Shown: piece after piece, positions 1 through 14,965 of the stretch
Numbering within the stretch: the first letter of the stretch is position 1
Layout of the letters: each line of letters opens with the position of its first letter
Assembly: GCF_001457615.1 (NCBI RefSeq)
Contig: NZ_LN831024.1
Span: 3,600,001 to 3,632,000, forward strand
Reading direction: 5' to 3'
Length of the DNA: 32,000 nt
From: Pseudomonas aeruginosa
GTDB lineage: Bacteria; Pseudomonadota; Gammaproteobacteria; Pseudomonadales; Pseudomonadaceae
Translations under genes and position numbers: made by a program
The notes under the pieces: model-generated
Told to the model about the DNA's origin: nothing
The model's database searches: none
Seen by the model: only the letters and a program-made list of their open reading frames with translations

Positions 1-539
1 AGATCTTCAAGAGCATCAGCTACGAAGGTGTGCCGGACATCCGCATCATCGTACTGATGGGCTACCCGGTGATGGCCATGCTGCGCCTGCCGACCCGGCA
101 GTCGGGCGGCAAGGCCAACCTGCATCAGGGCGCCATCGGCGTGGGCGTCGACCTGGCCACCGGTGTCACCCTGCGCGGCACCTGGCTGAACAACAAGATC
201 GCCAAGCACCCGGACACCACCAACGCGGTGGACGGCGTGCAACTGCCGAACTGGGACGGCTTCATGAAGCTGGCGGCCGGTTGCTACGAGTTGTCGGGCC
301 TCGGCTACATCGGCGTGGACATGGTTCTCGACCAGGAGAAAGGCCCGCTGATCCTCGAACTCAACGCCCGCCCGGGCCTGAACATCCAGATCGCCAACGA
401 CAGCGGCCTGGTGCACCGCTGCCACGCCGTCGAGGCGCGACTGGAAGAACTCAAGGCGAAAGGCATCGAAGAGTCCGCGGAAGAGCGCGTACGCTTCTCC
501 CAGCAGCTGTTCGGCCACGTCCAGCAGCACCAGGGCTGA
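1..539 (+). CDS. ATP-grasp enzyme, RimK-like alpha-L-glutamate-ligase-related protein (C-terminal part; 5' end lies outside the window)
   Basis: Frame 3 is open from the window edge (IFKSISYEGVPDIRI...), with stop TGA at 537-539. GYIGVDMVLDQEKGPLILELNARPGLNIQ is the typical ATP-grasp C-terminal Mg/ATP-binding E-x-N strand. GC3 is high. A strong terminator follows. Confidence 0.75.
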   Translation, partial: IFKSISYEGVPDIRIIVLMGYPVMAMLRLPTRQSGGKANLHQGAIGVGVDLATGVTLRGTWLNNKIAKHPDTTNAVDGVQLPNWDGFMKLAAGCYELSGLGYIGVDMVLDQEKGPLILELNARPGLNIQIANDSGLVHRCHAVEARLEELKAKGIEESAEERVRFSQQLFGHVQQHQG

Positions 540-595: not shown

Positions 596-1786
596 TCAAC
601 GCACCACGGCCAGCTCGAAGCCGCCCTGCCGGGCGTGCTCATGCACCTGCATACCCGCCTCGTTCACCGCCAGGTCCTGCAGCGGACGCTTGAACGGCTT
701 GTTGTCGAGGGTTTGCAGCGAGCGGTCCTCGTCGGTGGTCAGCAGCAGCACGTAGCGCTCGCCGCGATTGGCTCGCACCGGCACCGTACCCTCGATGAAA
801 GCGTAGCGATACCAGGTTTCCGGGTTCAGCTTGTACACCGCGTCGCTGACCAGCCGGGTCGGCCGCTTGTGCTCGTCGAGGAACAGCAGCGACGGGTAGA
901 CCACCTGGCGGTTGGCGAAACTGCGGATGCGCAGGCCGTAGACACCCTGGGAGCGCGGCAGCCGGATCGCCGCGTAGAAGCTCCTGCCCATGGGAAAGTC
1001 GAAGCTCGGCGAGAAGCGGTTCAACTCCTCGTAGCGCGGTTCGTCGGCATCCAGTTCGGTGAAGTCGCTCTCGGCGATCTGCTCGCAGCAGCGCCGTTGC
1101 AGGTCCTGGTAGAGATCGTCGATGGTCATCTCGGTGCCCTTGAGCAAAGCCTTCAGCGCATCGCTCTGCTGGCCGGCGCCATCCAGCCCGGGCAACGCCG
1201 TCGGACGTTGCTTGAACTCGATCTGCCGGCCCTCGGTGAAGGCGATCTGCGACGAAGGCGCGGCCTCCCGCTTGAAGCGCGCCGCGCGCTCCTCGGGCGG
1301 GATCTGCGAGTTGTGCATGCGGCCCTTCTCGTCCACCCAGGTGTAGTAGGGACTGCCGTTCTCGCTGCGAACGAAACCCTTGCCCTCGAAGGCCTCGGCG
1401 TCGATGTATTCGGCGGAGTGCTCGCCGTTGGGCAGGACGTAGTCGGCGCGCTGGCCGGCGACCTGGGCGCCGGCATAGAAGCTGTTCTGCACGTTGCCGT
1501 TGGCATCGATCCAGGTGTAGTAGCGACGCTTGCTCTCCCCTCCGCTGCTGTTCCCCGGCCACTGCGTGGCGTTGTCCGCCTTGTTCAGCACCCGCGCCTG
1601 GTCGCTCTGGCCGATGCGCTGCCGCGCCTGGCGCTGCTGGCGGTCGAACTGGCCGTCGACGAAGGTGTTGTGCACCCCGCCATTGTCGTCCACCCAGGTC
1701 AGGTAGCGCCCGCCGGAGGCCCAGCCCGGCGAAGATGCCGGCAGCGCCAGGGAGAAGACGCAAAGTACGATGGATGCGCGCATCAT
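596..1786 (-). CDS. Exported protein: three DUF4124-like repeats plus a MalM-like C-terminal domain
   Basis: N-terminal signal peptide MMRASIVLCVFSLALPASS. Three repeats: RYLTWVDDNGGVHNTF, RYYTWIDANGNVQNSF, PYYTWVDEKGRMHNSQ. In the C-terminal part, VYPSLLFLDEHKRP and ERYVLLLTTDEDRSLQT parallel E. coli MalM FAPNVLILDQNMTP and KLYVLVFTTEKDLQQT. SD GGAG lies upstream, 10 nt after the preceding stop. Confidence 0.8.
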   Translation of the reverse strand: MMRASIVLCVFSLALPASSPGWASGGRYLTWVDDNGGVHNTFVDGQFDRQQRQARQRIGQSDQARVLNKADNATQWPGNSSGGESKRRYYTWIDANGNVQNSFYAGAQVAGQRADYVLPNGEHSAEYIDAEAFEGKGFVRSENGSPYYTWVDEKGRMHNSQIPPEERAARFKREAAPSSQIAFTEGRQIEFKQRPTALPGLDGAGQQSDALKALLKGTEMTIDDLYQDLQRRCCEQIAESDFTELDADEPRYEELNRFSPSFDFPMGRSFYAAIRLPRSQGVYGLRIRSFANRQVVYPSLLFLDEHKRPTRLVSDAVYKLNPETWYRYAFIEGTVPVRANRGERYVLLLTTDEDRSLQTLDNKPFKRPLQDLAVNEAGMQVHEHARQGGFELAVVR

Positions 1787-1796
1787 GCTCCAGCCC

Positions 1797-3395
1797 TCAG
1801 AAGGTCGTACGGTAGGTCATGGCGAAAATATAGGCCTTCACCGTGGTGTCCACGTCCAGTCCCGCGTAGGGGTTGTACACCAGGTTGTCGAGCCCGGTGC
1901 AGTTCAGGTTGCAGCTGTTATCGGCCTTGACGCTCTGCTTGGTGACGAAGTAGTTGAAACCGACATCGATCACCGTGTCCTTGTCCCACTGGTAGCCCAG
2001 CCCCAGGCCGTAGAGATTGGCATCGCCGATCGGCACCAGGATGTCCGCCTGGCCCTTGGGGATCGCCGAAGGCCGGTATTCGTAGCCGGCGCGCAGCTGC
2101 AAACGGTCGTTGACGTCGTACTGCACGCCCATGGCCCAGCTCCAGGTATCGCGGTAGCCGCGGTCGAGGGTGATGCTGTGGCTGGTGGCGTCCTTCGAGT
2201 CGAGGTACTTGGCGATGCGCAGCAGGTCAAGCTCGCGGTCGAACTCGATCTTGAACTCGTTCCAGTCGCTGTAGCCGTTCCATTTCAGGTCGAAGTTGAA
2301 TTGCCACTTCTTGAACGGGCGCAGCTTCACGCCGGTGGAGAAGGCATCCGGATAGACCATGTTCATCGTGGCGTTGCCATGCTCTTCATCGACGTTCCCG
2401 TAAGGGAACATCTGGCCGAGGATCGCACCGCCGAGCGACTTGTGCACCCCGGTCCAGAAACCCTGCCAGCCCTGGCCGTAGTCGACCCGGTACTTGCCCT
2501 TGAGCCTCATCCGCGACTCGCTCTGATAGGTCGCGCCCCAGGCGAACCAGTCGGTGGGCTCCCAGAGCACGCCGAGGTTGAAGCTGGGCGACAGCGACTG
2601 CTGCATGTCCAGGTCGATATTGGCCAGGTTCTGGAACGGGCCGATGTTGCCGCCGCAGACGTTGAAGAACACCTCGAGGATCTCCTGCATTCCCGGCAGG
2701 CAACCGATCTCCTTGGTCTGCTGCAACAGCCCGAGCAACTGGTTCGGCGCCCGGAAATCCTCGTTCAACGCTACTGCCTGGTGGGAGAAACCCACCGACA
2801 GGCCGACCGACAGCTCGTCGTTGACCTGGTAGGCCAGGGTCGGCGAGAAGTAGGTGAGCCGCTGCAACGACACCTCGCGTCCCTGGTAGCGCGCCGGATC
2901 GCTATCGGAATCGCGGCTGTAGCCCAGCGCTTGCGGGGTATAGACGTTGGTGGCGAAGGTGAACTTGGAGCCCGGCGGGTTGATCGAGATCCCGGCCAGC
3001 GGCGCCACCAGCAACGGCACGTCGGTCATGCCGCCGAGGCCGGGCAGGTACATGGTCGGGGTCAGGGTCCGGCTGTGGCTGTTGGCGACCGGGTCGTCGC
3101 GCAGGCCGAAGGTGCCTTCGCCGTAGTTCGGCGGCGCCTTGAAGCCGGCGCGGATGTCCATCACCCCTGTAAGCAGCTTCACGGTCGCCTGGCGGCCCTT
3201 CATCCTGGTCAGCGCCGCCGGGTTGTAGTGCACCGAATCGATGCCGGTCTCGTCGGCGGTCACGGCGTTGCCGAGGGCCATGGCTTTCGGGTTGCCGATG
3301 GTCAGGTCGTTGGCCATCTGCGCGCCGGCCGGCGGAATCCAGGCCAGGCACACCCCTGCCAGCGCCAGCCAGAGCGGCGCAATGCGCATCTTCAT
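1797..3395 (-). CDS. Outer-membrane channel of the FadL/TodX (OMPP1) family
   Basis: Signal peptide MKMRIAPLWLALAGVCLAWIPPAGAQ. N-terminal GNPKAMALGNAVTADETGIDSVHYNPAAL aligns with FadL [26 protein letters not shown]. The segment RAGYEYRPSAIPKGQADILVPIGD aligns with [24 protein letters not shown]. C-terminal aromatic YRTTF. SD GAGG. Confidence 0.85.
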   Translation of the reverse strand: MKMRIAPLWLALAGVCLAWIPPAGAQMANDLTIGNPKAMALGNAVTADETGIDSVHYNPAALTRMKGRQATVKLLTGVMDIRAGFKAPPNYGEGTFGLRDDPVANSHSRTLTPTMYLPGLGGMTDVPLLVAPLAGISINPPGSKFTFATNVYTPQALGYSRDSDSDPARYQGREVSLQRLTYFSPTLAYQVNDELSVGLSVGFSHQAVALNEDFRAPNQLLGLLQQTKEIGCLPGMQEILEVFFNVCGGNIGPFQNLANIDLDMQQSLSPSFNLGVLWEPTDWFAWGATYQSESRMRLKGKYRVDYGQGWQGFWTGVHKSLGGAILGQMFPYGNVDEEHGNATMNMVYPDAFSTGVKLRPFKKWQFNFDLKWNGYSDWNEFKIEFDRELDLLRIAKYLDSKDATSHSITLDRGYRDTWSWAMGVQYDVNDRLQLRAGYEYRPSAIPKGQADILVPIGDANLYGLGLGYQWDKDTVIDVGFNYFVTKQSVKADNSCNLNCTGLDNLVYNPYAGLDVDTTVKAYIFAMTYRTTF

Positions 3396-3414
3396 AACAG
3401 GCCTCGCTCGCGGG

Positions 3415-4440
3415 TTACTGGGCCTTCAGCCCTTTGATATCGAGGGGTACGGATAACCCCAGCAGTACATCCGGCGAGTCTTCCGTGAGGCCGAAACCGG
3501 CGTTGACGTTGACGATGTAGTCCGGTGACGTCCGCAAGCCGAGCGAGAAGTTCATGATGCTACTGGTCTGTTCGGACGACTCGAACGTACCGGCAGTGGT
3601 GTGGTAGCGGTTCTTCAGCGTGTAGGCCATCTGGTACGAGGTCGCCAGCGAGACGTCGTAGGACAGCGCGTAGGCCATGCCCATGTTGAAGTTGATCGTG
3701 TTGCCGGGCGAGACCTTCTCCAGCTGGGAGTTGTCGGCCAGGGTCTGGTGCACGTCGTCCACCGGCAGGTTCCAGGTGTAGCCGAGCGAGCCGTAGAGGA
3801 CCACCGGGTCGATCACATAGGACATGTTCGCGCCGAAGCCCAGGCTGTAGTAGCCGTTGCCGGTGGAGATGTCCTTGTCCAGGTTGGTCTTGTAGGGACT
3901 GTCGCCGGTCGGCAGGCCGATGGTGGTATACAGCGTGGTGACCGGCCGCCCGCGCACCGCCGCCCAGGGCTGCCAGCGCAAGGTCGCGGAAACGTCGCCG
4001 AGGCTGTAGGCGTGGGTATCCATCTCGGTGTCGTACTTGGCTACCAGCGGCAGGCGGAAACTGAAGGTGAGGTTGTCCCAGATCCCGTAGTCGAAGGTGA
4101 AGGAGTTGGTGAAGGTGTGCTGGGACTGGCTCTGCCGGCCGGCGAGGCCGTAGATCTGCGTGCCGCCGCTGGTCTTGGTCAGCGGCACCAGGGTCAGCCG
4201 CTGGTCGCGCACCAGCGCGTAGTCGAAACCGTAGGTCAGGGTCCGCTCGCCCTTCTTGAGCAAGGTGTAGCTCTTCTCGGCGGCCTGGAAGACCTCCTCC
4301 AGCGCCTTGGCGCTGTCGGCATCGTCATTCTTCTTGGCCAGCGCGTCACGGGCCTGGTCGACCGAGGCTTCCTCGGCAACGGACAAACCGCTGATAGACA
4401 GCATCAGCGCCGCCGCGCATGTGTACCCCCTGATTCTCAT
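3415..4440 (-). CDS. Outer-membrane beta-barrel protein, family not assigned
   Basis: I moved the start to the ATG at 4440 (MRIRGYTCAAALMLSISGLSVAEE, a signal peptide preceded by GGGGA), not the track start at 4527. Alternating amphipathic strands rich in Y/G/T/S/N (TLTYGFDYALV, FTNSFTFDYGIW, YYSLGFGANMSYVI) are typical of OMP barrels. Confidence 0.7.
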   Translation of the reverse strand: MRIRGYTCAAALMLSISGLSVAEEASVDQARDALAKKNDDADSAKALEEVFQAAEKSYTLLKKGERTLTYGFDYALVRDQRLTLVPLTKTSGGTQIYGLAGRQSQSQHTFTNSFTFDYGIWDNLTFSFRLPLVAKYDTEMDTHAYSLGDVSATLRWQPWAAVRGRPVTTLYTTIGLPTGDSPYKTNLDKDISTGNGYYSLGFGANMSYVIDPVVLYGSLGYTWNLPVDDVHQTLADNSQLEKVSPGNTINFNMGMAYALSYDVSLATSYQMAYTLKNRYHTTAGTFESSEQTSSIMNFSLGLRTSPDYIVNVNAGFGLTEDSPDVLLGLSVPLDIKGLKAQ

Positions 4441-4480
4441 GGCGCTATCCCCAGAGATTGTTCTTGTTTTTGGGTATCTG

Positions 4481-5242
4481 CTACTTGGTGCGCAGGTGTA
4501 TGACGTCGCCACCAGTGCCCAGCTCACGGACCTGGTTTTCAGTGATCTTGTTGATCTGCGGAAACTCGCGGAACGCCAGCAGGCTGACGGTGCGGTCGTC
4601 CACCAGGCGCATGTCGCGATCGTTCAGCGCCAGCGCGTTGCGGGGCTCCTGCCCACTCGGGAAGATCACGAACAGGACGTTCTGGTCCCAGATTTCCTCG
4701 AAGCGCGTCCGGGTGAAGCTGATGTTGCCCAAGGCCGGATCGGCGACGAAGACGTGATCGTTGTAGACATCGCGCACCACCACGAAATGCTTGAAGCCGG
4801 CATAGTGGATGGGGACCAGCGCCGGATGCTCGAGAGCGTCCAGGTCGCTGAACTCGGCGCGAAAACCACCGCTCTTGTAGCCCAGCGCAGCGGCGTAGCG
4901 CTTCATGTCGAGCAGCGAGAAACCGCGGCGCTGCACGATCTTATCGGCCTCGCCATAGCGCAGCAGTCCTTCCATGACCTGGCGTTCCTCGAGGTTGCGC
5001 CCGAGGTAGTAGTCCAGCAGCGTGGTAAGCGCCGCCGAGCCGCAGCTGTAGTCATAGGCCTGGCGGATGACGTTGCGGAACTGCAACTGGCTCATCGGCT
5101 CCAGCTGCACCGATTCGCGGTAGGGTCCATTGGGGGTCAGAGGCTGGCTGAGGTTGACCGTGCCCTGCGGTTGCGGCTTGGTATCGACCGTCTGGGTGAA
5201 CCCGAACAGCCCGATCAGACTTCCCAGCAAAATCTCGAACAT
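4481..5242 (-). CDS. Stand-alone peptidase C39-like cysteine protease (no ABC transporter domains), hydrophobic N-terminus
   Basis: IRQAYDYSCGSAALTTLL gives the Gln-x5-Cys oxyanion/nucleophile pattern (Q61, C67). KHFVVVRDVYNDHVFVADPALG gives the His/Asp pair (H152, D168) of C39 bacteriocin-processing peptidases. The N-terminal MFEILLGSLIGLFGF is hydrophobic. Stop TAG at 4481. Confidence 0.8.
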   Translation of the reverse strand: MFEILLGSLIGLFGFTQTVDTKPQPQGTVNLSQPLTPNGPYRESVQLEPMSQLQFRNVIRQAYDYSCGSAALTTLLDYYLGRNLEERQVMEGLLRYGEADKIVQRRGFSLLDMKRYAAALGYKSGGFRAEFSDLDALEHPALVPIHYAGFKHFVVVRDVYNDHVFVADPALGNISFTRTRFEEIWDQNVLFVIFPSGQEPRNALALNDRDMRLVDDRTVSLLAFREFPQINKITENQVRELGTGGDVIHLRTK

Positions 5243-5265
5243 CGCCCCGTCGTACCTCTTTCGGA

Positions 5266-5298
5266 GAAAGACCCCGCCGATGCCTCGGCGAGGTCTTC
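5266..5298 (-). terminator. Intra-cluster stem-loop after the small secreted-protein gene (possible partial terminator/attenuator)
   Basis: GAAAGACCCCGCCGA / TCGGCGAGGTCTTC forms about 13 bp with one mismatch and loop TGCC. On the minus-strand transcript it is followed by UCUUUCUCC. It lies in the 78-nt gap between the stop at 5321 and the next start at 5242. Confidence 0.4.
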
Positions 5299-5320
5299 GC
5301 GTCTCGACTCGGTTCCTGGA

Positions 5321-5758
5321 TCAGTGACCCCAGACCTTGATGGTGGAACCGGCCATGTTCAGCCCGGAGACGGTCAGCGAGCCGATGCTGGCGGCGCTGG
5401 TGTCGCCCACCTTGATGGCGCCAACGGTCACGTCGCCGGTGATGGCCGGCAGGCCGATGGCCAGTTGCTGGGTCGACTTGCCGCCGATATCGGTGGTGAC
5501 GACGTCGATGGTCAGCGGCTTGGTATCGTCGATGGTCAGCGCCGGCAGGCTGATGTTCTCCAGCCGCAGGGAGCCGCCGTTGGTGTCGGTATCGGTGTAG
5601 GTCACGGCCCCGACGGAGCCCTGGAAAGTACCGGAAATGCTGATGCCTGCCTGGCCGGTCACGTCGGACAGCGCGCCATCGTCCATGGCTTTCAGGTCGG
5701 CATGCGCCAGCAAGGGAGCAGCCAGAACAGCAGTTGCAAGGAACAGGTGCTTTTTCAT
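5321..5758 (-). CDS. Small secreted Gly/Thr/Ser/Ile/Asp-rich, Cys-free protein (145 aa) of unknown function
   Basis: I chose the start at ATG 5758 (MKKHLFLATAVLAAPLLAHA, a signal peptide with SD GGAGA 7 nt upstream) rather than the track start at 5812. The mature part has alternating beta-strand-like sequence (ISISGTFQGSVGAVTYTDTD, LTIDVVTTDIGG, VTVGAIKVGD). Confidence 0.8.
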   Translation of the reverse strand: MKKHLFLATAVLAAPLLAHADLKAMDDGALSDVTGQAGISISGTFQGSVGAVTYTDTDTNGGSLRLENISLPALTIDDTKPLTIDVVTTDIGGKSTQQLAIGLPAITGDVTVGAIKVGDTSAASIGSLTVSGLNMAGSTIKVWGH

Positions 5759-5947
5759 TGTTATTTCTCCAGTGTTCAGGTGTGGTTTGCCCCAGGGCAC
5801 TGCCGTTTGCATCCTGTCCCCGGCAGATCGACCGGCATCTCGCCGGTCTCCAGGTCCGGTACTGCTTCCCTAGGTGTCCCGGACATGGATTCGGTAGAGC
5901 CTCATGCTCTCTCGTCCTGGATTCCAAGCTACTGGGCCACCCCTTCC

Positions 5948-5983
5948 GCCGCCAGCCCATCCAAGGGATGGAGCGATGGCGGC
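5948..5983 (-). terminator. Imperfect stem-loop immediately 3' of the second regulator gene
   Basis: GCCGCCA...CCATCC-CTT-GGATGG...TGGCGGC (sense-strand reading): 7-bp and 6-bp stems with an internal loop, starting 7 nt after the stop at 5990. There is no U-run, so terminator function is uncertain. Confidence 0.3.
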
Positions 5984-5989
5984 TGCCGC

Positions 5990-8713
5990 TCACGCCTCGC
6001 TCAGCAGTCCCAGGCTTTTACCCTTTAGTACGGCTTGCGTTCTGCTCTTCACACCCAGCTTGGCGAACAGGTTGTGCAGGTGCCACTTGATGGTGGCTTC
6101 CGACAGGTGCACCGCCTGCGCGATATCGCGGTTCGACAAGCCCGCCGCCACCAGCCGCAGGATTTCCCGTTCGCGATGGCTAACATCCTGATTTTCATCG
6201 AAACTTTCCGGGTCCACGGAGAGCTTCCGGCACTGCTCGCGGAGCAGGTCGGCCAGCCCCTGCCAGGCCGCGGCACGCTTGGGCTCCGCTTCCCTCCAGC
6301 TTTCCCACATCGGCAACAGCCACAACGCGTCGTCCTGGAACAGCCGGCGGTAGCCGAGATTCCAGGCTTCCTCGAGCGTGGCGAGGAACAGGCCGATGGC
6401 TTTTTCGCTGTTACCTTTCTGCCAATACGCCACAGAAAGTAACAAGGACAAACGCAGCCGCCGATCCCTCTGGTAAGCGGAAGAGTAGCCGGCCAGACAG
6501 CTTTCCAGCTTGCTCTGCGCGCGTTCCGCGTGACGCTCGGACAATGCCAGCCGAGCCTCCGCCAGGACCAGGGCGGTCTGTGCGTCGGCATGCCGCTCGC
6601 CGGAGAGCCCGGCAAGATGCCGCTCCAGTTGCAGGCAGACCCGTTCGGCTTCGTTCGGACGGCGCAGCCACAGCAGGAACTGCACCTTGCAGCTCATGGC
6701 GTGAGCATAGACACGCTCGTAGCCGGGCGAGAGCAGACCGCTCAGCCATTCGTCGAGTTGCGCCAGCCCCTGCTCGGCGGCGCCGGAGAAGAAGCGCGCC
6801 TTGGCCATGACCAACTGGCCGCGACTGAGCAGTTCCACCGGCGTCGCGACATCCCGCCAGACCGTCGCCAGCGGTAGTTCGGCGAGCACGCCGGCATGCC
6901 GGTCCTGCTCGTAGAGCAGGTCGGCATAGGCCAGCGACAAGGGTCCGCCGACCCGGCTGCGCCGGCCGAATACCTGCTCGACCCGGTTGCGCGCCGACTC
7001 GGCGATCGCCCTGCCCCGCTCCAGGTCGCCACTCTCCTTGCAGATCAGGGATTCGATCAGGCTGGTCACCACCTGCAGGTACTCGCTGTCGGCGACTTTC
7101 AGGTCCTCCCGCGCGGAACCGATGGCGCCGGCGGCCTCGGCGTAGTCGCCGAGCAGCGCATGCGCCGAAGCCTGCACGCAGAGCAGGCTGGCGCGGAACA
7201 CCGGCTGGTTGCTCGGGACCATGGACAGCCAGTGACGGGCGACCTTCAGGCAGGCTTCGAGCTTGTCCTGGTAGAGCAACACCAGGGCCTTGAGCACCTG
7301 GGCGGCGGCGAGCAACTCGCCGAGCCCGAAGTGCATGACCTTGCCGCGCCCCTGCAAGAGGCGGTGGCTGACCTCCTCGATCAACGCCTCGGCCTCGGCG
7401 AAGCGTTGCTCGAACGCCAGTTGCCAGGCGTAGAAGATCTGGAACACCGGATGCTCGCGGATCACCTCGGCGGGAATGCCGTTGAGCATGCCGAGGATGC
7501 CGTACACCCGGTTACCGGCGATCAGGCGCGCGCCCTGGCGCTCCAGCAACTCGGCGGCGAACAGGTAGTCGCGGGCGCGAAGGGCGTACTTGATCGCCCG
7601 GTCGGCCAGGTCGCGCCCCTCGCACCAGCGCGCCGCCGCATGCAGCAACGGGGTCGGATCGGCATGCCGGGACAGCCGCCCCTGGAGGAACTCGGCGAAC
7701 AGATGGTGGTAGCGGAACCATTCGCGCTGGTCGTCCAGGGCGATGACGAACAACTGCTCGTTCTGCAGGCGCATGAGCATGTCCAGGCCGTCGCGACGCC
7801 CGGTCAGCGCATTGCACAGTTCCGCATTGAACTCATCGAGCACCGAGGTCTGGTCGAGGAACAGCTGCAGGTCGGCGGGCAGGCTGGCCAGCACGTCTTC
7901 CGCCAGGTAGTCGGCGATGTTCCGTTCGGTCCCGGAGAGCCCGCGGAGGAAACCTTCCCGGTCGGTATTGCGACTGAGGGCCAGGGCCGCCAGGTGCAAC
8001 GCCGTGATCCAGCCTTCGGTGCGCTTGAACAGCAGCTTCAGCTCGCGCTCGCCCAGCTCCAGCCCCTTGAGGTCGAGGAGAAACGCATCGCTCTCCTCGC
8101 GCGAAAGTCGCAGGTCTTCCGCGCTCAGGCAGAAGGTCCAGGGCTTGAGGGTCGGCTCGTCGACCAGGAAGCGCGGGCGGAAGCGGGTCGAGGCCACCAC
8201 CCGCACGTGATCGGGCAGGTTCTCGATCAGGTAGCGAACCCCATGCGGCAAGGCGGCGTGGCGGATGCGGTGGAAATCGTCGAGGAACAGGTACAAGGAG
8301 CCTTCCAGGCGACGCAGGTCGGCGAGGAAGGCATCCAGGATACCCTCCAGCGGCACCGCGACGTCGGTGCCGAGCAGATTGGCGGTATTGCCGCCGAATG
8401 CCGGGACCACTCGCTGGATGCTCGCCAGCAGGTACTGGATCAGACGCTGCGGTTCGCTGTCGGTCTCGTCGCAGGACAACCATGCCACCGCCGCGCCCTG
8501 CTCCAGCAGGCGCAGGCGCAACTGGCAGAGGATGGTGCTCTTGCCGAAGCCGGCCGGCGCGCTGAGCACCATCGCGCGTCGCCCGCGGGCCTCGTACAGG
8601 CGGTCGATCAGCGCCTGGCGGGGCAGCAGCGGCAGCCCTCCGGCGCCTGGCGGGAACAGCTTGGTCTGCAACAGCGGAATGGTGCTGGCGGGAACACCGT
8701 CGCGATGGCCCAT
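5990..8713 (-). CDS. MalT-like large ATP-binding LuxR-family (LAL/STAND) transcriptional regulator, copy 2
   Basis: Start ATG at 8713 (MGHRDGVPASTIPLLQTKLFPP...), 2 nt after the upstream stop. Walker A SAPAGFGKS; Walker B YLFLDDFH; long helical/TPR-like middle region; C-terminal LuxR HTH REREILRLVAAGLSNRDIAQAVHLSEATIKWHLHNLFAKLGV. The track's 1570-aa ORF is a read-through artefact. Confidence 0.85.
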   Translation of the reverse strand: MGHRDGVPASTIPLLQTKLFPPGAGGLPLLPRQALIDRLYEARGRRAMVLSAPAGFGKSTILCQLRLRLLEQGAAVAWLSCDETDSEPQRLIQYLLASIQRVVPAFGGNTANLLGTDVAVPLEGILDAFLADLRRLEGSLYLFLDDFHRIRHAALPHGVRYLIENLPDHVRVVASTRFRPRFLVDEPTLKPWTFCLSAEDLRLSREESDAFLLDLKGLELGERELKLLFKRTEGWITALHLAALALSRNTDREGFLRGLSGTERNIADYLAEDVLASLPADLQLFLDQTSVLDEFNAELCNALTGRRDGLDMLMRLQNEQLFVIALDDQREWFRYHHLFAEFLQGRLSRHADPTPLLHAAARWCEGRDLADRAIKYALRARDYLFAAELLERQGARLIAGNRVYGILGMLNGIPAEVIREHPVFQIFYAWQLAFEQRFAEAEALIEEVSHRLLQGRGKVMHFGLGELLAAAQVLKALVLLYQDKLEACLKVARHWLSMVPSNQPVFRASLLCVQASAHALLGDYAEAAGAIGSAREDLKVADSEYLQVVTSLIESLICKESGDLERGRAIAESARNRVEQVFGRRSRVGGPLSLAYADLLYEQDRHAGVLAELPLATVWRDVATPVELLSRGQLVMAKARFFSGAAEQGLAQLDEWLSGLLSPGYERVYAHAMSCKVQFLLWLRRPNEAERVCLQLERHLAGLSGERHADAQTALVLAEARLALSERHAERAQSKLESCLAGYSSAYQRDRRLRLSLLLSVAYWQKGNSEKAIGLFLATLEEAWNLGYRRLFQDDALWLLPMWESWREAEPKRAAAWQGLADLLREQCRKLSVDPESFDENQDVSHREREILRLVAAGLSNRDIAQAVHLSEATIKWHLHNLFAKLGVKSRTQAVLKGKSLGLLSEA

Positions 8714-8715
8714 GG

Positions 8716-11484
8716 TCAGAGCAGGCTCAGCTCGCGGGCTCGCCGGATCGCCTGGGTGCGATTGCGCACCTTGAGCTTTTCGTAGATGTTGTGCAGATGC
8801 CATTTGACGGTCCCCAGGGCCAGCGACAGGCGCTGGCCGATTTCTTCGTTGGATAGGCCCTGTGCGGCCAGGCAGACCACTTCGCGCTCGCGCTCCGTCA
8901 GGCCTTCCTCGAGCGCATCCTGGGGCTTGCGCACGCCCTGCCCGGGCCAGATGCCGAGCAGGCCGCGAATGAAGGTCTGTAGCGCCGGCTGGCGCTCGGT
9001 GGATTCGAGTTGCTGGAGCAACTGGCGAATGCCGTCGCCTTCCTCGATGAAGAGGCTGCGCACCCCTTCCCGTTCGGCATTGATCAGGCATTCGCCGAGC
9101 AGGCTGTTGGCCCGTTCCTGGTAGCCCAGGCGCTGATAGCTGAGCGCCGCCAGGATATCCAGGCGCAGGCGCTGCAGGCCATGCCAACCGGGCTGCAAGG
9201 TGCCGCGCAACTGAGTGATCTCGTGCAGCGCCTCGCTGAAATGTCCTCGCCCCTGCAACAGGCGCACGCGGCTCACACCCAGCGACCAGTTGACCGGGTT
9301 GAAGGCCATGTTGCGGTAGTGTGCCGCCATCTTGTTCCAGTCCACGCTCTTCAACCGCTGCTCGGCGCGCTTCAGGCGGTCGGGGCCGCTGTCCTGGAGG
9401 ATCAGGTTGATCTCTTCGGCCATGGCCTGGGCGAAGAAGCGCCACGACTGATTGCGCGAGGCCAGGGCCTGCATCGCCGCCAGGCTGGCCAGCGCCTCCT
9501 TCGGCCGTCCCAGCAGGCGCTGGGTGCGCGCCAGGCAGATCTGTCCCTGGGCATAGAAATCGATCGGATTGATCACATCCACATGCCCGAGCGCCCAGCC
9601 CAGGCGCTCTTCCAGCCCGTCCAGCTCGATCCTGTAGTAGGCGGTCAGGGCCTCGGTGATGGTCGGCAGCGCCAGCGCGCTCCTGGACTTCTCGAACAGC
9701 GGCCGGGCGCGCTGGCGGAGCCGCTCGATGAGCAGTTGCGCCTGTTTCACCTGGCCCTGCTCGAGTGCGAGGATCACCTCGACGTTGGCCAGTTGCATGT
9801 CCAGGTAGCGCCCTTCGAGGAAATGATTGCGCTGCTGCGCCAGCCCCAGCAGGCGCCGCGCCTGGTCGCCCTGGCCACGGACCACCTGGGCCAGCGCGGC
9901 AGTGATCAACACCGCCACTTCGAGGAAGGCAGCGTTCTGCCCGAGCTGGACTTCGACCCGGCGAGCCAGGGCGATGCACAGTTCCAGATCGTCCTTCTGC
10001 AACGCCACCACCGCCTTCACCGCCAGCGCGGAGAGGTACTGGTCGCCCATCGGCCCGTCGCCGCGGCTCTCCCCCCAGCGCGCCAGCAGTTCGTCGATGA
10101 TCCGGTTGGCCTCGCCCAGGCTGAGGTCGCTGGCCCGCGACCAGACATCGGTAAGGACCAGGATCGGATAGCGCTCGGCGATTTCGTCCGGCACATGCTT
10201 GCGCCAACGGTAGATCAGGCTGAGCTGGCCGCGGTTGATCAGCTCCAGTCCGCATCCGTCGACCAGCGCGGCGATCATCTCCGGGTCTTCCGCCGCACAG
10301 GCATGCTCGATGGCGAACGTCGGCATGTGGTGGTTGGTGAACCACAGGCTGGCGTTGAAATGCAGTTGCTTGAAACGGTCCGGATCGGAGTCGCGCAGGC
10401 GGTTGCGGAGGAAGTCGGCGAACAGCAGGTGGAAGCGATACCACTGGCGTTCGCGATCCAGCGGCAGGAGGAACAATTGCATGGACTCCAGGCGCTCCAG
10501 CAGCGCCTGGCCGTCCTGGCGCCCGGTCAGGGCGTTGGCCAGGTCGCCGCTCAATTGGCTGGCAACGCCAAGGGCCAGCAGCGCTTCCTGCAGGTCGCCA
10601 GGCAAGCGTTCGAAGACCGCCGCCAGCAGATAGGCGCTGACCGCCTGCTTGTCGCCGTCGAGCAGGGCCATTTCCTGCACCTGCGGTTGCTGGCGCAGCC
10701 ACAGGCTGACGAGATGCACGCCCACCACCCAGCCTTCGGTCTGGCCATAGAGCGCCTTCAGGCAGGGCTCGTCCAGATAGAGACCGCTGCGCTCGAGGTA
10801 TTCGCGGGTTTCCTCGAAGCCGAGGCGCAGCTCCTCGAGGCCGATTTCCAGCAACAGTCCCTTGGCCCGCCAGGTAGCCAGGCTCAGCGCCGGCTGCGAA
10901 CGCGTGCCCAGGGCCAGGACCAGCCCGGGCGGTGCGTACTGCACCAGGCGGTTGAGGCCGGTGAAGATGTCCGGGTTGCTAACCAGGTGCAGGTCGTCCA
11001 GCACCAGCAGCAACGGCCGCGCATAGCGATCGAGATCGCCGAGCAGGCTTTCGATCACCGCCACCACCGGGACCCGCATGGTGTTCTGCAGGTAGGTCTG
11101 GGCGTCGTCGCCAAGCTGCGGCACGGCTTCGCCCAGCGCCTCGATCAGCTGCCGGCAGAAACGGGCGGGGTCGTCGTCTTCTTCGGCAAGCGAGAGCCAG
11201 GCCACCGCCTGGTCTGCTACAGTGCGCTCCCTGGCCAGGGCGGCGAGCGCGCAGGTCTTGCCGAAGCCGGCAGGTGCGGAAAACATCAGAACGCGTGAAT
11301 GGGGATTGCGATCCAGCAGGTTGCGGATCGCGGGGCGAAGAGAATATTCGGCTGGCACCTGAGGCGGCACTATTCTGGAGCGCGAAAGGCTGCCGGCTGC
11401 TGGATCCTGTACTGCATCCACGGCCTGTATCCCTGTGTCATTATCATTGTGGTACGGAGCCAAATCTCCGTGGGATATTTCCAT
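8716..11484 (-). CDS. MalT-like large ATP-binding LuxR-family (LAL/STAND) transcriptional regulator, copy 1
   Basis: Walker A SAPAGFGKT; Walker B LLVLDDLH; TEGWVVGVHL arm motif; C-terminal LuxR HTH REREVVCLAAQGLSNEEIGQRLSLALGTVKWHLHNIYEKLKV. The exact start is less certain because there is no clear SD at 11484. Confidence 0.85.
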   Translation of the reverse strand: MEISHGDLAPYHNDNDTGIQAVDAVQDPAAGSLSRSRIVPPQVPAEYSLRPAIRNLLDRNPHSRVLMFSAPAGFGKTCALAALARERTVADQAVAWLSLAEEDDDPARFCRQLIEALGEAVPQLGDDAQTYLQNTMRVPVVAVIESLLGDLDRYARPLLLVLDDLHLVSNPDIFTGLNRLVQYAPPGLVLALGTRSQPALSLATWRAKGLLLEIGLEELRLGFEETREYLERSGLYLDEPCLKALYGQTEGWVVGVHLVSLWLRQQPQVQEMALLDGDKQAVSAYLLAAVFERLPGDLQEALLALGVASQLSGDLANALTGRQDGQALLERLESMQLFLLPLDRERQWYRFHLLFADFLRNRLRDSDPDRFKQLHFNASLWFTNHHMPTFAIEHACAAEDPEMIAALVDGCGLELINRGQLSLIYRWRKHVPDEIAERYPILVLTDVWSRASDLSLGEANRIIDELLARWGESRGDGPMGDQYLSALAVKAVVALQKDDLELCIALARRVEVQLGQNAAFLEVAVLITAALAQVVRGQGDQARRLLGLAQQRNHFLEGRYLDMQLANVEVILALEQGQVKQAQLLIERLRQRARPLFEKSRSALALPTITEALTAYYRIELDGLEERLGWALGHVDVINPIDFYAQGQICLARTQRLLGRPKEALASLAAMQALASRNQSWRFFAQAMAEEINLILQDSGPDRLKRAEQRLKSVDWNKMAAHYRNMAFNPVNWSLGVSRVRLLQGRGHFSEALHEITQLRGTLQPGWHGLQRLRLDILAALSYQRLGYQERANSLLGECLINAEREGVRSLFIEEGDGIRQLLQQLESTERQPALQTFIRGLLGIWPGQGVRKPQDALEEGLTEREREVVCLAAQGLSNEEIGQRLSLALGTVKWHLHNIYEKLKVRNRTQAIRRARELSLL

Positions 11485-11585
11485 AATTAGCAGATCACCC
11501 TTCTTACGTAAACTGAAGAAATGGCTCTAGGATCGACGATTCCGGCGAACTAGAATTCCTGACTGTCCCACTACCCCCACTTTCC

Positions 11586-12947
11586 ATGCCCAGTTGTCAT
11601 GTTCACCCCCTGCCCTACCATAGCGACCCAAGCTGTCTCTTTGCCATCATCCATGAGGCGCCCGGTGCGGTGATGCTCGATTCGGGTCGCCCCATCGCTA
11701 CCCGTGGACGCTATGACCTTATGAGCGCCTGGCCATTGGCAGAACTGGCGCCGCTGCCCGACGAATCGGCCAACCGCTTCTTCGCCCGCCTACGCGAAGC
11801 GGCCGGAAGCCTGGGCCCCGCGCAGCTGCCAGCGCCGTACGAACTGCCCTTCGCCGGCGGTCTGCTGGGCTATTTATCCTACGACCTGGGTCGGCGCATC
11901 GAGCGCATCGGCGAACACGCCCGCGATGACCTGGGCCTGCCGCTGGCCTCCGTCGGCCTGTATGCCTGGGCGCTGATCAGCGACCACCAGGCCGGCACCA
12001 GCCAACTGGTATTCCACCCGCGATTGGACGAGCGCGAACGCCAGCGCCTGATCGCCCTGTTCAGCGAGGAAGCGCAAGGCGCGGCCGGCAACTTCAAGCT
12101 TCTGGGAAAATTCCGACGGAGCATCAGCGCATCCGACTATCGGCAGGCGATCCGCCGCATCCAGGACTACATCCAGGCAGGCGACTGCTACCAGGTGAAC
12201 TATAGCCAGCGCTTCCAGGCCGCTTGCAGCGGCTCGCCGTGGCCGGCCTATCGCGCCCTGCGCGAGGCCTGCCCGACGCCGTTCTCCGGCTACCTGCGAC
12301 TGGCCGACGGCGCGATCCTCAGCCTGTCGCCGGAGCGCTTCCTCAAGCTCGGCAAGGGCAAGGTGGAAACCCGGCCGATCAAGGGCACCCGCCCGCGCGG
12401 CAAGACGCCCGAGGAGGACATGGCGCTGGCGGCGTCGCTGCTGGCCAGCCCCAAGGACCGCGCGGAAAACCTGATGATCGTCGACCTGCTGCGCAACGAC
12501 ATCGGACGCAGTTGCCAACCTGGCAGCGTACGGGTACCGGAGCTGTTTGCCCTGGAAAGCTATCCCAACGTGCATCACCTGGTGAGCAGCGTCACCGGCG
12601 AACTGGCGCCGGGCAAGGACGCCCTCGACCTGCTGGAAGGCAGCTTCCCCGGCGGCTCGATCACCGGCGCGCCGAAGATTCGCGCCATGCAGATCATCGA
12701 CGAGCTGGAACCGAGCCGACGCGGCATCTACTGCGGCAGCCTGTTCTACCTCGACGTGCGCGGCGAGATGGACAGCTCGATCGCCATCCGCACCCTGCTG
12801 GTCAGGGACGGCCAGGTCAGTTGCTGGGGCGGCGGCGGCATCGTCGCCGACTCGCACTGGGAGGACGAGTACCAGGAAACCCTGGACAAGGTCCGGGTGC
12901 TGCTGGAAACCCTGGAAGGAATGGCCGGGACAGCGTCCCCGGAATAG
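11586..12947 (+). CDS. pabB: Aminodeoxychorismate synthase component I
   Basis: Chorismate-binding enzyme motifs SPERFLK, ETRPIKGTRPRG, DRAENLMIVDLLRNDIGR, FPGGSITGAPKIRAMQIIDELE, RGIYCGS. There is no TrpE-type N-terminal feedback motif. The position next to thrH/cysH is as I recall for PAO1. Confidence 0.85.
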   Translation: MPSCHVHPLPYHSDPSCLFAIIHEAPGAVMLDSGRPIATRGRYDLMSAWPLAELAPLPDESANRFFARLREAAGSLGPAQLPAPYELPFAGGLLGYLSYDLGRRIERIGEHARDDLGLPLASVGLYAWALISDHQAGTSQLVFHPRLDERERQRLIALFSEEAQGAAGNFKLLGKFRRSISASDYRQAIRRIQDYIQAGDCYQVNYSQRFQAACSGSPWPAYRALREACPTPFSGYLRLADGAILSLSPERFLKLGKGKVETRPIKGTRPRGKTPEEDMALAASLLASPKDRAENLMIVDLLRNDIGRSCQPGSVRVPELFALESYPNVHHLVSSVTGELAPGKDALDLLEGSFPGGSITGAPKIRAMQIIDELEPSRRGIYCGSLFYLDVRGEMDSSIAIRTLLVRDGQVSCWGGGGIVADSHWEDEYQETLDKVRVLLETLEGMAGTASPE

Positions 12948-12948
12948 A

Positions 12949-12975
12949 AAAGAGCCCGCGTTCCGCGGGCTCTTT
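12949..12975. terminator. Bidirectional rho-independent terminator (pabB / thrH convergent)
   Basis: AAAGAGCCCGCG / CGCGGGCTCTTT form a 10-12 bp stem with a short loop. An A-run lies on one side and a T-run on the other. Confidence 0.7.
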
Positions 12976-12989
12976 CATCGGCGGCGCGG

Positions 12990-13607
12990 CTACAGGCTCA
13001 GCGAACGGCTGGAAGCCTTGAGGAACTCGCGCTTGAGGTCTTCGTAGGTATGCACCGCGGGGAACTGGGGAAACTCGCGGATCACGTTTTCCGGGGCATG
13101 GAACAGGATGCCGGCGTGGGCCTCGGAAAGCATGGTGGTGTCGTTGTAGGAATCGCCGGCGGCGATCACCCGATAGTAGAGGCTCTTGAAGGCGATCACC
13201 GACTGCCGCTTGGGATCCTTCTGGCGCAATTGATAGCCGACCACCCGGTCGCTGTCGTCGATCTCCAGCTTGTGGCACAACAGGGTCGGGAAGCCCAGCT
13301 GGCGCATCAGCGGCTGGGAGAACTCGTAGAAGGTGTCGGAGAGAATCACCACCTGGAAGCGCTCGCGCAGCCAGTCGACGAATTCCACCGCCCCCTCCAG
13401 CGGCTTCAGGGTAGCGATCACCTCCTGGATGTCGCCCAGCTTCAGACCATGTTCGTCGAGGATGCGCAGGCGCTGCTTCATCAGCACGTCGTAGTCCGGA
13501 ATGTCCCGGGTGGTCGCCTTCAAGGCGTCGATACCGGTTTTTTCCGCGAACGCGATCCAGATTTCCGGAACCAGCACGCCTTCCAGGTCAAGACAGGCAA
13601 TTTCCAC
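12990..13607 (-). CDS. thrH: HAD-family phosphoserine phosphatase / homoserine kinase ThrH (205 aa)
   Basis: GTG start at 13607 preceded by AGGAG. The N-terminus (M)EIACLDLEGVLVPEIW carries the HAD DxD-type motif, and the C-terminal GDSYNDTTML is HAD motif III. The track's 231-aa ORF overextends upstream. Confidence 0.85.
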   Translation of the reverse strand: MEIACLDLEGVLVPEIWIAFAEKTGIDALKATTRDIPDYDVLMKQRLRILDEHGLKLGDIQEVIATLKPLEGAVEFVDWLRERFQVVILSDTFYEFSQPLMRQLGFPTLLCHKLEIDDSDRVVGYQLRQKDPKRQSVIAFKSLYYRVIAAGDSYNDTTMLSEAHAGILFHAPENVIREFPQFPAVHTYEDLKREFLKASSRSLSL

Positions 13608-13741
13608 AGGACTCTCCTCGAAATTCTCTGAACGATGGGGTGACGACGGACGCGGCACTCTAGCCCCTCGCCGAGGGCAAGGCAACGCCGGCTTATTCCT
13701 GGAATCAAGGTCGACAGGGGTAAATGGTTATTTAGGGCCAT

Positions 13742-14545
13742 ATGCCGCCCTTTGCTACCATTCCCGCCACAGAGCGCAACAGCGCCGCCCAGCACCAGGA
13801 CCCCAGCCCGATGAGCCAGCCTTTCGACCTTCCCGCCCTCGCCTCCAGCCTTGCCGACAAATCCCCCCAGGACATCCTGAAAGCCGCCTTCGAGCACTTC
13901 GGCGACGAGCTGTGGATCTCCTTCAGCGGCGCCGAGGACGTCGTCCTGGTAGACATGGCCTGGAAGCTCAACCGCAACGTGAAGGTGTTCAGCCTCGACA
14001 CCGGTCGCCTGCACCCGGAAACCTATCGTTTCATCGACCAGGTCCGCGAACACTACGGCATCGCCATCGACGTGCTTTCCCCCGACCCGCGCCTGCTCGA
14101 ACCCCTGGTGAAGGAAAAGGGCCTGTTCAGCTTCTACCGGGACGGCCACGGCGAGTGCTGCGGCATCCGCAAGATCGAACCGCTCAAGCGCAAGCTCGCC
14201 GGCGTGCGCGCCTGGGCCACCGGCCAACGCCGCGACCAGAGCCCCGGCACGCGCAGCCAGGTGGCGGTGCTGGAAATCGACGGTGCCTTTTCCACGCCGG
14301 AAAAGCCGCTGTACAAATTCAACCCGCTGTCGTCCATGACCAGCGAGGAGGTCTGGGGCTATATCCGCATGCTCGAACTGCCCTACAACAGCCTGCACGA
14401 ACGCGGCTATATCAGCATCGGCTGCGAACCCTGCACCCGTCCGGTGCTGCCCAACCAGCACGAGCGCGAGGGCCGCTGGTGGTGGGAGGAAGCCACCCAC
14501 AAGGAGTGCGGGCTGCACGCCGGCAACCTGATCAGCAAGGCCTGA
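13742..14545 (+). CDS. cysH: Assimilatory APS/PAPS reductase (Fe-S type)
   Basis: PAPS-reductase fold ([20 protein letters not shown]). Cys pairs ECCGIRK and GCEPCT are typical of the [4Fe-4S] APS-reductase subgroup. C-terminal KECGLH active-site motif. Confidence 0.9.
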
Positions 14546-14609
14546 AACCGTCGATAGAGCGTATGCAATCGGGGTAAAGTGCGGGTCGAACCCCGAGCGG
14601 AGACCCAGC

Positions 14610-14957: not shown

Positions 14958-14965
14958 GGGCCAGC

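Follow-up and report, generated by a model that had tools for sequence, protein, structure and literature searches.

A Pseudomonas aeruginosa gene cluster homologous to Acinetobacter fil probably directs assembly of a surface fibre from a C39 peptidase-processed subunit

Type IV pili, Tad/Flp, Cup pili and the Fap amyloid are the known surface fibres of Pseudomonas aeruginosa, and they matter for biofilm and infection. We analysed a 32,000 nt stretch of DNA from this organism (assembly GCF_001457615.1, contig NZ_LN831024.1, positions 3,600,001 to 3,632,000 of the forward strand; hereafter the window, whose positions serve as coordinates throughout) and focused on a cluster of seven genes, PA1759-PA1765, all of them on the minus strand. 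PA1761-PA1765 are related to the filA-filE genes of Acinetobacter, and we regard it as probable that the cluster is a Fil-type fibre-assembly operon.

In NCBIfam the products of filA to filF from Acinetobacter are labelled as a "putative pilus system" (A1S_0690-0695; models NF050077-NF050081 and NF033645; Pfam FilE_C). The searchable literature on Fil consists of pellicle and biofilm proteomics, where A1S_0690-0695 appear as "putative type III pili", and of vaccine and type II secretion system (T2SS) work on FilF. For Acinetobacter Tol 5, one paper cites FilA as the subunit of the Fil pilus, detected by surface proteomics (PMC11784438, citing Hori 2011). We found no mechanistic study of Fil in this searchable part of the literature, outside of which most subscription journals lie. 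The 'thick pili' of A. baylyi, which a review ties to twitching motility, could not be confirmed as FilA pili, and that reading was dropped.

Two components of the Fap system are relevant here. The classical products of C39 peptidases that act on double-glycine leaders are mature bacteriocins and peptide signals; FapD is a periplasmic member of this family whose active-site Cys is needed for Fap to be secreted and whose target is still unknown, and FapF is a plugged barrel, a trimer, through which subunits pass unfolded (PMC5557850). A further point of comparison is the "pilus-like-alpha" filament 9XFV, a native helical filament from karst-cave water with a rise of 11.70 Å and a twist of 283.86 degrees. 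Its reconstruction at about 3 Å, with the sequence assigned from the map, shows folded subunits containing alpha-helix; in the source paper it served as a control for handedness, and the main text does not discuss biogenesis genes (PMC12956863, PNAS 2026).

A first-pass annotation of the window, made from the sequence alone, had described seven head-to-tail genes on the minus strand, comprising two MalT-like LAL regulators, a C39 peptidase, a FadL-family outer-membrane protein and a MalM/DUF4124 protein among others, with a strong terminator after the last gene. Open reading frames (ORFs), public assemblies and Pfam searches bear out this description, and the elements are the following:

8716-11484, minus strand: PA1759-like LAL regulator, a MalT-like STAND ATPase with TPR and LuxR helix-turn-helix (HTH) parts (Pfam AAA_16/AAA_22, TPR_MalT and GerE)
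5990-8713, minus strand: PA1760-like second LAL regulator (Pfam AAA_16/AAA_22, TPR_MalT and GerE)
5321-5758, minus strand: PA1761, FilA-like DUF6160 protein, putative fibre subunit precursor of 145 aa with a predicted mature length of 109 aa
4481-5242, minus strand: PA1762, FilB-like and FapD-like C39 cysteine peptidase with a hydrophobic N-terminus (Pfam Peptidase_C39, 74 bits)
3415-4440, minus strand: PA1763, FilC-like and FapF-like outer-membrane barrel (NCBIfam FilC/FapF; no Pfam match)
1797-3395, minus strand: PA1764, FilD-like outer-membrane barrel of the FadL/TodX/OmpP1 family (Pfam Toluene_X, 439 bits, full length)
596-1786, minus strand: PA1765, periplasmic protein in the FilE position (Pfam MalM, 115 bits, and DUF4124)
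552-585, bidirectional: intrinsic terminator hairpin between PA1765 and a convergent ATP-grasp gene (-29 kcal/mol, z = -4.6)

The two regulator genes are separated by 2 nt, followed by gaps of 231, 78, 40, 19 and 10 nt, the latter five as noted before. Public assemblies call the same seven genes with products of 901/856, 907, 145, 253, 341, 532 and 395/396 aa. The start of PA1759 is ambiguous, as the ATG at 11484 gives 922 aa, gene callers arrive at 901 or 856 aa and a GTG at about 11421 is an alternative. With the spacing of 2 nt, translational coupling of PA1759 and PA1760 is probable, and we infer that the cluster is co-transcribed; PA1761 and PA1762 do increase jointly in one array study (PMC12431658). 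The exact 145 aa sequence of PA1761 is present in more than 44,000 assembly blocks. Published tables assign thrH to PA1757 and the C39-domain protein Q9I2X7 to PA1762, and the locus tags used here were obtained by counting along the gene order from these two genes.

By sequence homology, the part of the cluster from PA1761 to PA1765 (596-5758) is the P. aeruginosa homologue of Acinetobacter filABCDE, without filF. In comparisons with the NCBIfam models PA1761 matched FilA with E = 1e-13 (51 bits, Acinetobacter-tuned cutoff 220), PA1762 matched FilB with E = 1e-87 (294 bits, 'exception' cutoff 475), PA1763 matched FilC with E = 2e-85 (287 bits, 'exception' cutoff 630) and PA1764 matched FilD with E = 2e-154 (515 bits, 'exception' cutoff 970); the Pfam family DUF6160 was found on PA1761 with 81 bits vs a cutoff of 27. 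The NCBIfam FilE model gave no direct match to PA1765. Profiles of the fifth gene from the Pseudomonas set and from an Acinetobacter-type set (six loci, L081-L086, with FilE certified in L083) aligned with each other at hhalign 97% and E = 1e-10. The domain that Pfam names MalM in the fifth protein here is named FilE_C in Acinetobacter, and a homologue of the fifth gene from Bermanella matches both families over one region. The locus of Acinetobacter modestus (L083), which emerged from the C39 scan described below, scores above the NCBIfam cutoffs for all of FilA-F, and its gene order is identical. It is on the FilA-D matches, the fifth-gene profile match and the gene order of L083 that the assignment to filA-filE is based.

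Both systems thus comprise a DUF6160 subunit with the same leader (A), a C39 peptidase (B), a FapF-like barrel (C), a FadL-family barrel (D) and a protein with a DUF4124-like N-terminus and a MalM/FilE_C-type C-terminus (E). The leader of FilA, ...DDxALSxxTGQ before DG, and its C-terminal ...GH have their counterparts in PA1761. In addition, a pabB-like (chorismate-binding) gene adjoins both clusters, in L083 just upstream of filA. They differ in that P. aeruginosa lacks filF, which encodes a T2SS-dependent lipoprotein (PMC12802150), in that mature PA1761 has 109 residues compared to about 300 for Acinetobacter FilA, and in the tandem LAL regulators of the P. aeruginosa locus. The initial claim that the composition of the cluster matches no described system did not survive, given the hidden Markov model (HMM) matches to FilA-D, the homology of the fifth protein to FilE and the relatives FapD and FapF. 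While its novelty is weakened because the HMM searches point to a known system, it is not abolished, since Fil has been named but not mechanistically characterised. New in this locus are the lack of FilF, the short subunit of 9XFV type and the tandem LAL control.

The N-terminus of PA1761 can be divided into two parts:

5699-5758, minus strand: Sec-type signal peptide MKKHLFLATAVLAAPLLAHA, read from the sequence and kept in homologues
5651-5698, minus strand: 16-residue propeptide of double-glycine type, DLKAMDDGALSDVTGQ, with predicted cleavage between Q36 and A37

The order is therefore MKKHLFLATAVLAAPLLAHA, then DLKAMDDGALSDVTGQ, then AGISISG. The FilA-like ORFs upstream of the peptidase gene all show a classical signal peptide ending in A-x-A, about 16 residues of the pattern [LM]xx[LM][DNE][DE]xx[LM][SA]xx[TS]G[QR] and subsequently [DAS]G[ILV]. 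We counted the conservation of this leader over 54 distinct sequences. Position -1 is Q in 50 and R in 4 of them, and position -2 is always G; equally without exception (54/54) are L or M at -7, D or E at -10 and M, L, I or V at -12, followed by L or M at -15 (48/54) and G at +2 (50/54). Within the window the G-Q leader motif is unique to PA1761. Double-glycine leaders of C39 peptidases are known for hydrophobic residues at positions -4, -7, -12 and -15 together with Gly at -2, as in the ColV leader with its terminal ELDSVSGG, to which ALSDVTGQ in PA1761 may be compared. A Gln at position -1 is incompatible with signal peptidase I.

On the side of the peptidase, residues Q61, C67, H152 and D168 of PA1762 are invariant in 24 diverse homologues, and we take them to be the C39 catalytic tetrad. 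Export signals of the cluster proteins were read from the sequences; the previous statement that all five structural products carry them agrees with this reading, with a reservation for PA1762, whose N-terminal hydrophobic segment has no basic n-region and may be a signal anchor instead of a cleaved signal peptide. Further evidence for processing comes from the 9XFV structure. The chain 9xfv_A comprises 173 residues and its alignment begins at +1/+2 after the G-Q, and 173 residues is also the predicted length after the G-Q for the proteins of two other loci (L087 and L088). Because of the conserved leader, the start and length of the 9XFV chain and the precedent of FapD, removal of the PA1761 propeptide by PA1762 appears well supported. 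A candidate cleavage substrate for the PA1762 domain is the peptide DLKAMDDGALSDVTGQAGISI.

The C39 domains of peptidase-containing ABC transporters (PCATs) resemble this pair in the C39 fold with Q/C/H/D and in an amphipathic leader with Gly at -2. In contrast to these, PA1762 stands alone (253 aa) and is predicted to face the periplasm by analogy with FapD, and the PA1761 leader follows a Sec signal peptide and has Gln/Arg at -1 instead of Gly, Ala or Ser. As no ABC domain was found in the cluster proteins with Pfam or NCBIfam and the leader ends in G-Q, not in GG, GA or GS, PA1762 does not belong to the PCATs.

A sequence search of the PDB with PA1761 gave a sole match, 9xfv_A (E = 1.7e-7). 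The AlphaFold2 (AF2) model of PA1761 (pLDDT 76) shows a compact beta fold, for which 9xfv_A was again the only significant match in a fold search of the PDB (E = 4.8e-5, TM 0.44). The C-terminal W-G-H of PA1761 is invariant. We scanned metagenomes with the aligned part of the 9xfv_A chain and identified a freshwater metagenome contig (L087, Ga0194137_10000079, 9833-18566) with a gene whose product shares 83% identity with the 9XFV subunit, and with a second copy; after 4.5 kb, C39, FilC-like and FadL-like genes follow on this strand. The layout is the same in locus L093, where the protein is 61% identical to the 9XFV subunit. These two loci pair a 9XFV-like subunit with C39, FilC-like and FadL-like genes, and thereby tie the observed filament to this type of gene cluster. 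L087 contains three more leader-bearing ORFs (12770-13633, 13638-14531 and 14541-15038), with leaders ending in WGQ, TGR and TGQ, which suggest minor subunits. PA1761 is nearer to the 9XFV type (BLASTP E = 1e-12 and 6e-9) than to Acinetobacter FilA. It shares with 9XFV the protein family in sequence and fold, the leader found in close relatives and the C-terminal W-x-H ending, and differs from it by lacking about 60 residues (109 vs 173 aa). Judged by sequence and model, PA1761 is most likely a fibre subunit, and the earlier suggestion that the peptidase lies beside its own likely substrate gains strong support from the leader analysis and the solved filament. For a surface pilus made of FilA the support is indirect, from 9XFV and from the citation of Hori 2011.

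PA1761 might also be a secreted or surface monomer, such as an adhesin, a signal or a bacteriocin-like protein, which is matured by the C39 peptidase and released by the barrels but does not polymerise in P. aeruginosa. This would agree with the classical substrates of C39 peptidases with double-glycine leaders, with the shortness of the mature protein compared to 9XFV and with the fact that no fibre has been reported from the heavily imaged P. aeruginosa. We consider it unlikely, given that the N- and C-terminal modules common to PA1761 and 9XFV, including the invariant W-G-H, are the conserved core of the family and that PA1761 is closer to the type that forms filaments than to Acinetobacter FilA. 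Moreover, the operon is nearly silent under laboratory conditions (PMC12431658), which would explain the absence of an observed fibre.

To assess the conservation of the cluster, a peptidase alignment built from diverse full-length relatives was used to scan one genome per species, and the 80 best loci were examined. These are found in Pseudomonas, Ectopseudomonas, Kistimonas, Alcanivorax, Alloalcanivorax, Bermanella, Marinobacter, Oleiphilaceae, Thalassolituus, Oleispira, Hahellaceae, Bacterioplanoides, Saccharospirillaceae, Acinetobacter and other Moraxellaceae. Linkage was counted where 5.2 kb or more of sequence follows the peptidase gene (n=68, about a dozen genera). FilC-like and FadL-like genes follow the peptidase gene in all 68 of them and a FilE-like gene in 67/68, while a gene for a FilF-like lipoprotein is present in only 7/68; a FilA-like ORF lies upstream of the peptidase gene in 45/72 loci. 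As the gene order recurs across genera, the layout of the cluster is not due to chance.

On one side the cluster is neighboured by genes for a PAPS reductase, a HAD phosphatase and a chorismate-binding enzyme, on the other side by an ATP-grasp/7TM-transglutaminase set, a phosphoenolpyruvate (PEP)-synthase kinase and ppsA. It is located downstream of the cysH/thrH/pabB group in Pseudomonas (window 11586-13685), Kistimonas, Thalassolituus and Bermanella (L032, L038, L041), and the PEP-synthase kinase and ppsA lie on its other side in Pseudomonas, Thalassolituus and Bermanella. Its place between cysH-thrH-pabB and the ppsA region is thus shared by several genera, which argues for an old, vertically inherited locus. 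The set convergent with the cluster consists of three genes, PA1766-1768 by position, whose products are of ATP-grasp, 7TM transglutaminase-like and RimB-like protease type; of these, the window (1-539) covers only the C-terminus of the ATP-grasp protein, and the full set is seen in L001-L006 (15220-18278). An Rfam scan of the window gave no match.

The host genera are rich in hydrocarbon or oil degraders, namely Alcanivorax, Marinobacter, Thalassolituus, Oleispira, Oleiphilus, Bermanella, Acinetobacter and the P. aeruginosa/nitroreducens/mendocina groups. This bias may reflect adhesion to hydrophobic interfaces, or phylogeny alone. In a metagenome-assembled genome of Alloalcanivorax (L037, 7777-9642) a gene for a TPR and sulfotransferase protein is inserted between filA and filB, and its product could be a subunit-modifying enzyme.

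Regarding the two outer-membrane barrels, PA1763 matched the FapF structure 5o67 in the PDB with E = 1e-13 and the NCBIfam FapF model with E = 1e-18 (67 bits, equivalog cutoff 700), and PA1762 matched NCBIfam FapD with E = 7e-35 (120 bits, equivalog cutoff 330). On these scores FapD/FapF and PA1762/PA1763 are classed as paralogous families, not as orthologs. In homologues of PA1763 (n=75) the barrel is immediately preceded by a conserved N-terminal helical motif, AREALxKQ..DADS.K.LEEVFQAAEK.YSLLKKG, and the C-terminus shows a GFGLTEDSPDVLLG motif which aligns with the terminus of FapF. Because of its homology to FapF, PA1763 is likely an outer-membrane conduit. PA1764 scored 42 bits with the FadL ortholog model (NCBIfam PRK10716), whose cutoff is 585, and only weakly with PorV/PorQ; by its sequence we place it as a true barrel of the Toluene_X family in a FilD subfamily and not as a FadL ortholog. 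Our guess, by analogy with PorV in the type IX translocon, is that it acts as an outer-membrane docking or anchoring partner.

PA1765 contains three DUF4124-like YTWVDxxG repeats (residues 27-42, 88-103 and 146-161) and a C-terminal domain of MalM/FilE_C type, and a sequence search of the PDB with it gave no match. Its AF2 model, calculated from a 31-sequence alignment, had a mean pLDDT of 45 and was left out of the fold search as unusable. The protein in this position carries a lipobox (LxGC) in Marinobacter, Bermanella and Alcanivorax (L037, L041, L065) and a plain signal peptide in Pseudomonas and Acinetobacter. We would guess at a periplasmic adaptor or chaperone.

The combination of a LAL/MalT-type activator with an outer-membrane barrel and a periplasmic protein with MalM domain also occurs in the MalT regulon of E. 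coli, and the first-pass annotation had seen here an echo of the MalT to malK-lamB-malM logic. What remains of this is the family membership of the regulators and the MalM domain. PA1759 and PA1760 scored 332 and 304 bits with the MalT ortholog model (cutoff 537) and are not MalT orthologs, PA1765 scored 23 bits with the MalM equivalog model (cutoff 295) and its domain is of the FilE_C type that all such clusters carry in fifth place, the barrel is FadL-type/Toluene_X and not LamB, a MalK/ABC ATPase is missing and the tandem regulator pair is confined to Pseudomonas. Every ortholog test on the sequences failed, and the resemblance to MalT-LamB-MalM is to be seen as superficial, not functional.

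We judge it very unlikely that the cluster is a MalT-type regulon for the uptake or handling of hydrophobic substrates by a FadL-type channel with a MalM-like helper, to which a protease-substrate pair was added. Such a function would be in line with the full-length Toluene_X/FadL-family barrel PA1764, the MalM domain of PA1765, the MalT-like regulators and the many hydrocarbon degraders among the host genera. It would also fit the array data of a mutant in rubB (rubredoxin-reductase, alkane pathway), where PA1761 is up 13.5-fold and PA1762 17.9-fold together with lipid-use genes (PMC12431658). However, the FadL-like gene, whose product belongs to the FilD subfamily, is linked to the C39 and FapF-like genes in each of the 68 loci, genes for catabolism, ABC components or inner-membrane uptake are absent from the cluster, its regulators are kept with it only in Pseudomonas and part of Marinobacter, and a DUF6160 protein forms filaments (9XFV). 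Of the hydrophobic-substrate channel described in the first-pass annotation, the Toluene_X family assignment holds, but PA1764 is invariably accompanied by the peptidase and the FapF-like barrel, and no genes for uptake or catabolism lie nearby.

With the Fap system the cluster has in common a FapD-like, probably periplasmic C39 peptidase beside a FapF-like outer-membrane barrel, Sec-dependent substrates, the lack of ATPase, usher or T2SS parts and an extracellular fibre as product, the latter here a prediction from the genes. The earlier remark that no ABC, T2SS or usher component is present holds for the cluster proteins in Pfam and NCBIfam searches, and neither chaperone-usher domains (usher, PapD-like chaperone) nor type IV pilus domains (prepilin peptidase site, secretion ATPase) were found in the seven proteins. 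On the other hand, PA1761 is a predicted folded DUF6160 subunit and not a Q/N-repeat amyloid, the FadL-like and MalM-like parts are absent from Fap, FilC lacks the long disordered linker of FapF (structures 5O65/5O67/5O68), and an obvious C39-type leader is present on Fil substrates, whereas the FapD target is unknown. That the cluster forms a second Fap-like functional amyloid, with PA1761 exported via the FapF-like pore to give cross-beta fibrils in the biofilm matrix, is hardly credible despite the FapD and FapF homology and the fact that, among characterised systems, Fap alone pairs such a barrel with a C39 peptidase in the periplasm (PMC5557850), as PA1761 has no Q/N-rich imperfect repeats as in FapB/FapC, searches of ORFs, Pfam and NCBIfam found neither FapB/FapC-type subunits nor FapA or FapE in the cluster, the AF2 model of PA1761 is a compact beta fold and 9XFV is a helical assembly of folded subunits with alpha-helix, resolved to about 3 Å, and not a cross-beta amyloid.

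Regarding regulation, all 25 Pseudomonas/Ectopseudomonas loci whose contig extends far enough have the tandem LAL pair before the cluster, with a single regulator on one short contig, and among the scanned loci the pair is confined to Pseudomonas. In about seven loci of Marinobacter it is replaced by one divergent LAL gene. A LAL gene also lies upstream in L088 and an AraC gene in L087, and the remaining loci lack a regulator next to the cluster. Two elements were recognised in the 231 nt gap between PA1760 and PA1761:

5951-5971, minus strand: 21-nt element CCATCCCTTGGATGGGCTGGC with the inverted repeat CCATCC-n3-GGATGG, about 200 nt upstream of filA, conserved across species
5926-5955, minus strand: candidate weak sigma-70-type promoter (-35 CTGGCG, 18-nt spacer, -10 TAGCTT), abutting the inverted repeat and read from conserved blocks

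The element CCATCCCTTGGATGGGCTGGC is unique in the window and was found exactly in 19 Pseudomonas loci of the species scan and in six P. aeruginosa assemblies, amid intergenic DNA that has otherwise diverged. Its half-sites resemble the core of the MalT box, GGATGA, and we regard it as a candidate binding site for the LAL regulators; the inverted-repeat stretch CCATCCCTTGGATGG is a candidate target of the HTH domains of PA1760/PA1759. As an RNA hairpin or terminator the repeat folds no better than shuffled sequences (z = -1.1), and it is the sequence and not the pairing that is conserved, so that a DNA site is preferred over an RNA hairpin. A consensus promoter scan of the gap gave no promoter, and the candidate above is based on cross-species conservation only; together with CCATCCCTTGGATGGGCTGGC the weak -35/-10 pair would fit an activator-dependent promoter. 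Reading GCTGGCAG as a sigma-54 promoter was rejected, as P. aeruginosa has no TTGC at the right spacing. In the putative 5' untranslated region (UTR) of PA1761 we noted a hairpin, GAGAGC-AUGAG-GCUCU (about 5896-5912, minus strand), with few compensatory changes among Pseudomonas in a manual count (AAGC/GCUU, GAGC/GCUC, AUGC/GCAU); RNAalifold on the putative UTR did not recover this small hairpin.

The nascent transcript of PA1759 is a reported target of Hfq/Crc (PMC5990048), which would place a regulator of the cluster under carbon catabolite repression. PA1762 has been seen in an extracellular proteome. Beyond such omics lists the P. aeruginosa locus does not appear in the searchable literature, which excludes most subscription journals.

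Taken together, we favour the following outline for a Fil-type fibre-assembly operon. The tandem LAL regulators PA1759/PA1760 would switch on the normally silent operon via the inverted repeat upstream of PA1761, and all five products would, as read from their sequences, reach the periplasm or the outer membrane by Sec. Signal peptidase would cleave PA1761 between AHA and D, and PA1762 would subsequently remove the propeptide in the periplasm between G35-Q36 and A37, a well supported step. By homology to FapF and FapD, unfolded PA1761 would cross the outer membrane through PA1763, and export would need the activity of the peptidase. Outside of the cell the subunits would polymerise into a helical filament similar to 9XFV, as shown for this relative. 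PA1764 and PA1765 would be obligatory accessory parts of a usher-independent, Fap-like machine. We have good, though not full, confidence that the cluster works as outlined, and much lower confidence in the roles of PA1764 and PA1765 and in the regulatory model.

Several points weigh against this interpretation. Every NCBIfam Fil score is below the Acinetobacter-tuned cutoff, and PA1761 has only the leader and a C-terminal module in common with Acinetobacter FilA (BLASTP E ~1e-4). The sixth position holds no filF, PA1765 being followed by the terminator and the convergent ATP-grasp gene. Loci of Marinobacter, Bermanella and Hahellaceae carry filBCDE without an adjacent filA (L034, L040, L041, L046, L051, L061-L079), and where the DUF6160 gene is missing next to filBCDE the substrate must be encoded elsewhere in the genome or be different. 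Conversely, some DUF6160 genes, as in L095, have no C39 gene within the 10 kb flank examined. The start of the 9XFV model could be due to disorder instead of cleavage, the membrane orientation of PA1762 is not fixed by sequence alone, the binding of the regulators to the inverted repeat is a prediction, and the functions given for PA1764 and PA1765 are guesses. Finally, the searchable literature contains no demonstration of a fibre, of cleavage or of secretion for the P. aeruginosa cluster proteins.

It is possible, although we put this forward only tentatively, that the cluster represents a normally silent, undescribed class of surface filament, whose pathway has yet to be counted among the secretion or assembly types and would be defined by Sec export, C39 removal of a G-Q propeptide, a FapF-type and a FadL-type barrel and a MalM-type periplasmic partner. 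If this is true, a FadL-type barrel has been recruited for the export or anchoring of proteins and not for lipid uptake, one leader rule applies to whatever the periplasmic C39 clade as a whole cleaves, the FapD target among them, and MalM-type domains are given a first functional context. As far as we can tell, neither the connection between Fil, Fap and 9XFV nor the G-Q leader rule nor the conserved regulatory element has been stated in the searchable literature.

For C39 peptidases that stand alone in the periplasm, our analysis proposes a concrete cleavage rule, between Q and (A/D) in ...L-S-x-V-T-G-Q-(A/D)-G; the substrate of the Fap member has been open since 2017. It furthermore links the orphan cryo-EM filament 9XFV to biogenesis genes, and suggests that FadL barrels of the FilD subfamily and MalM-like domains take part in protein export, which bears on the annotation of thousands of 'FadL' and 'MalM' genes. 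For P. aeruginosa itself, a further conserved fibre operon would, if true, be new biology, with possible roles in adhesion, in the biofilm matrix and as an antigen.

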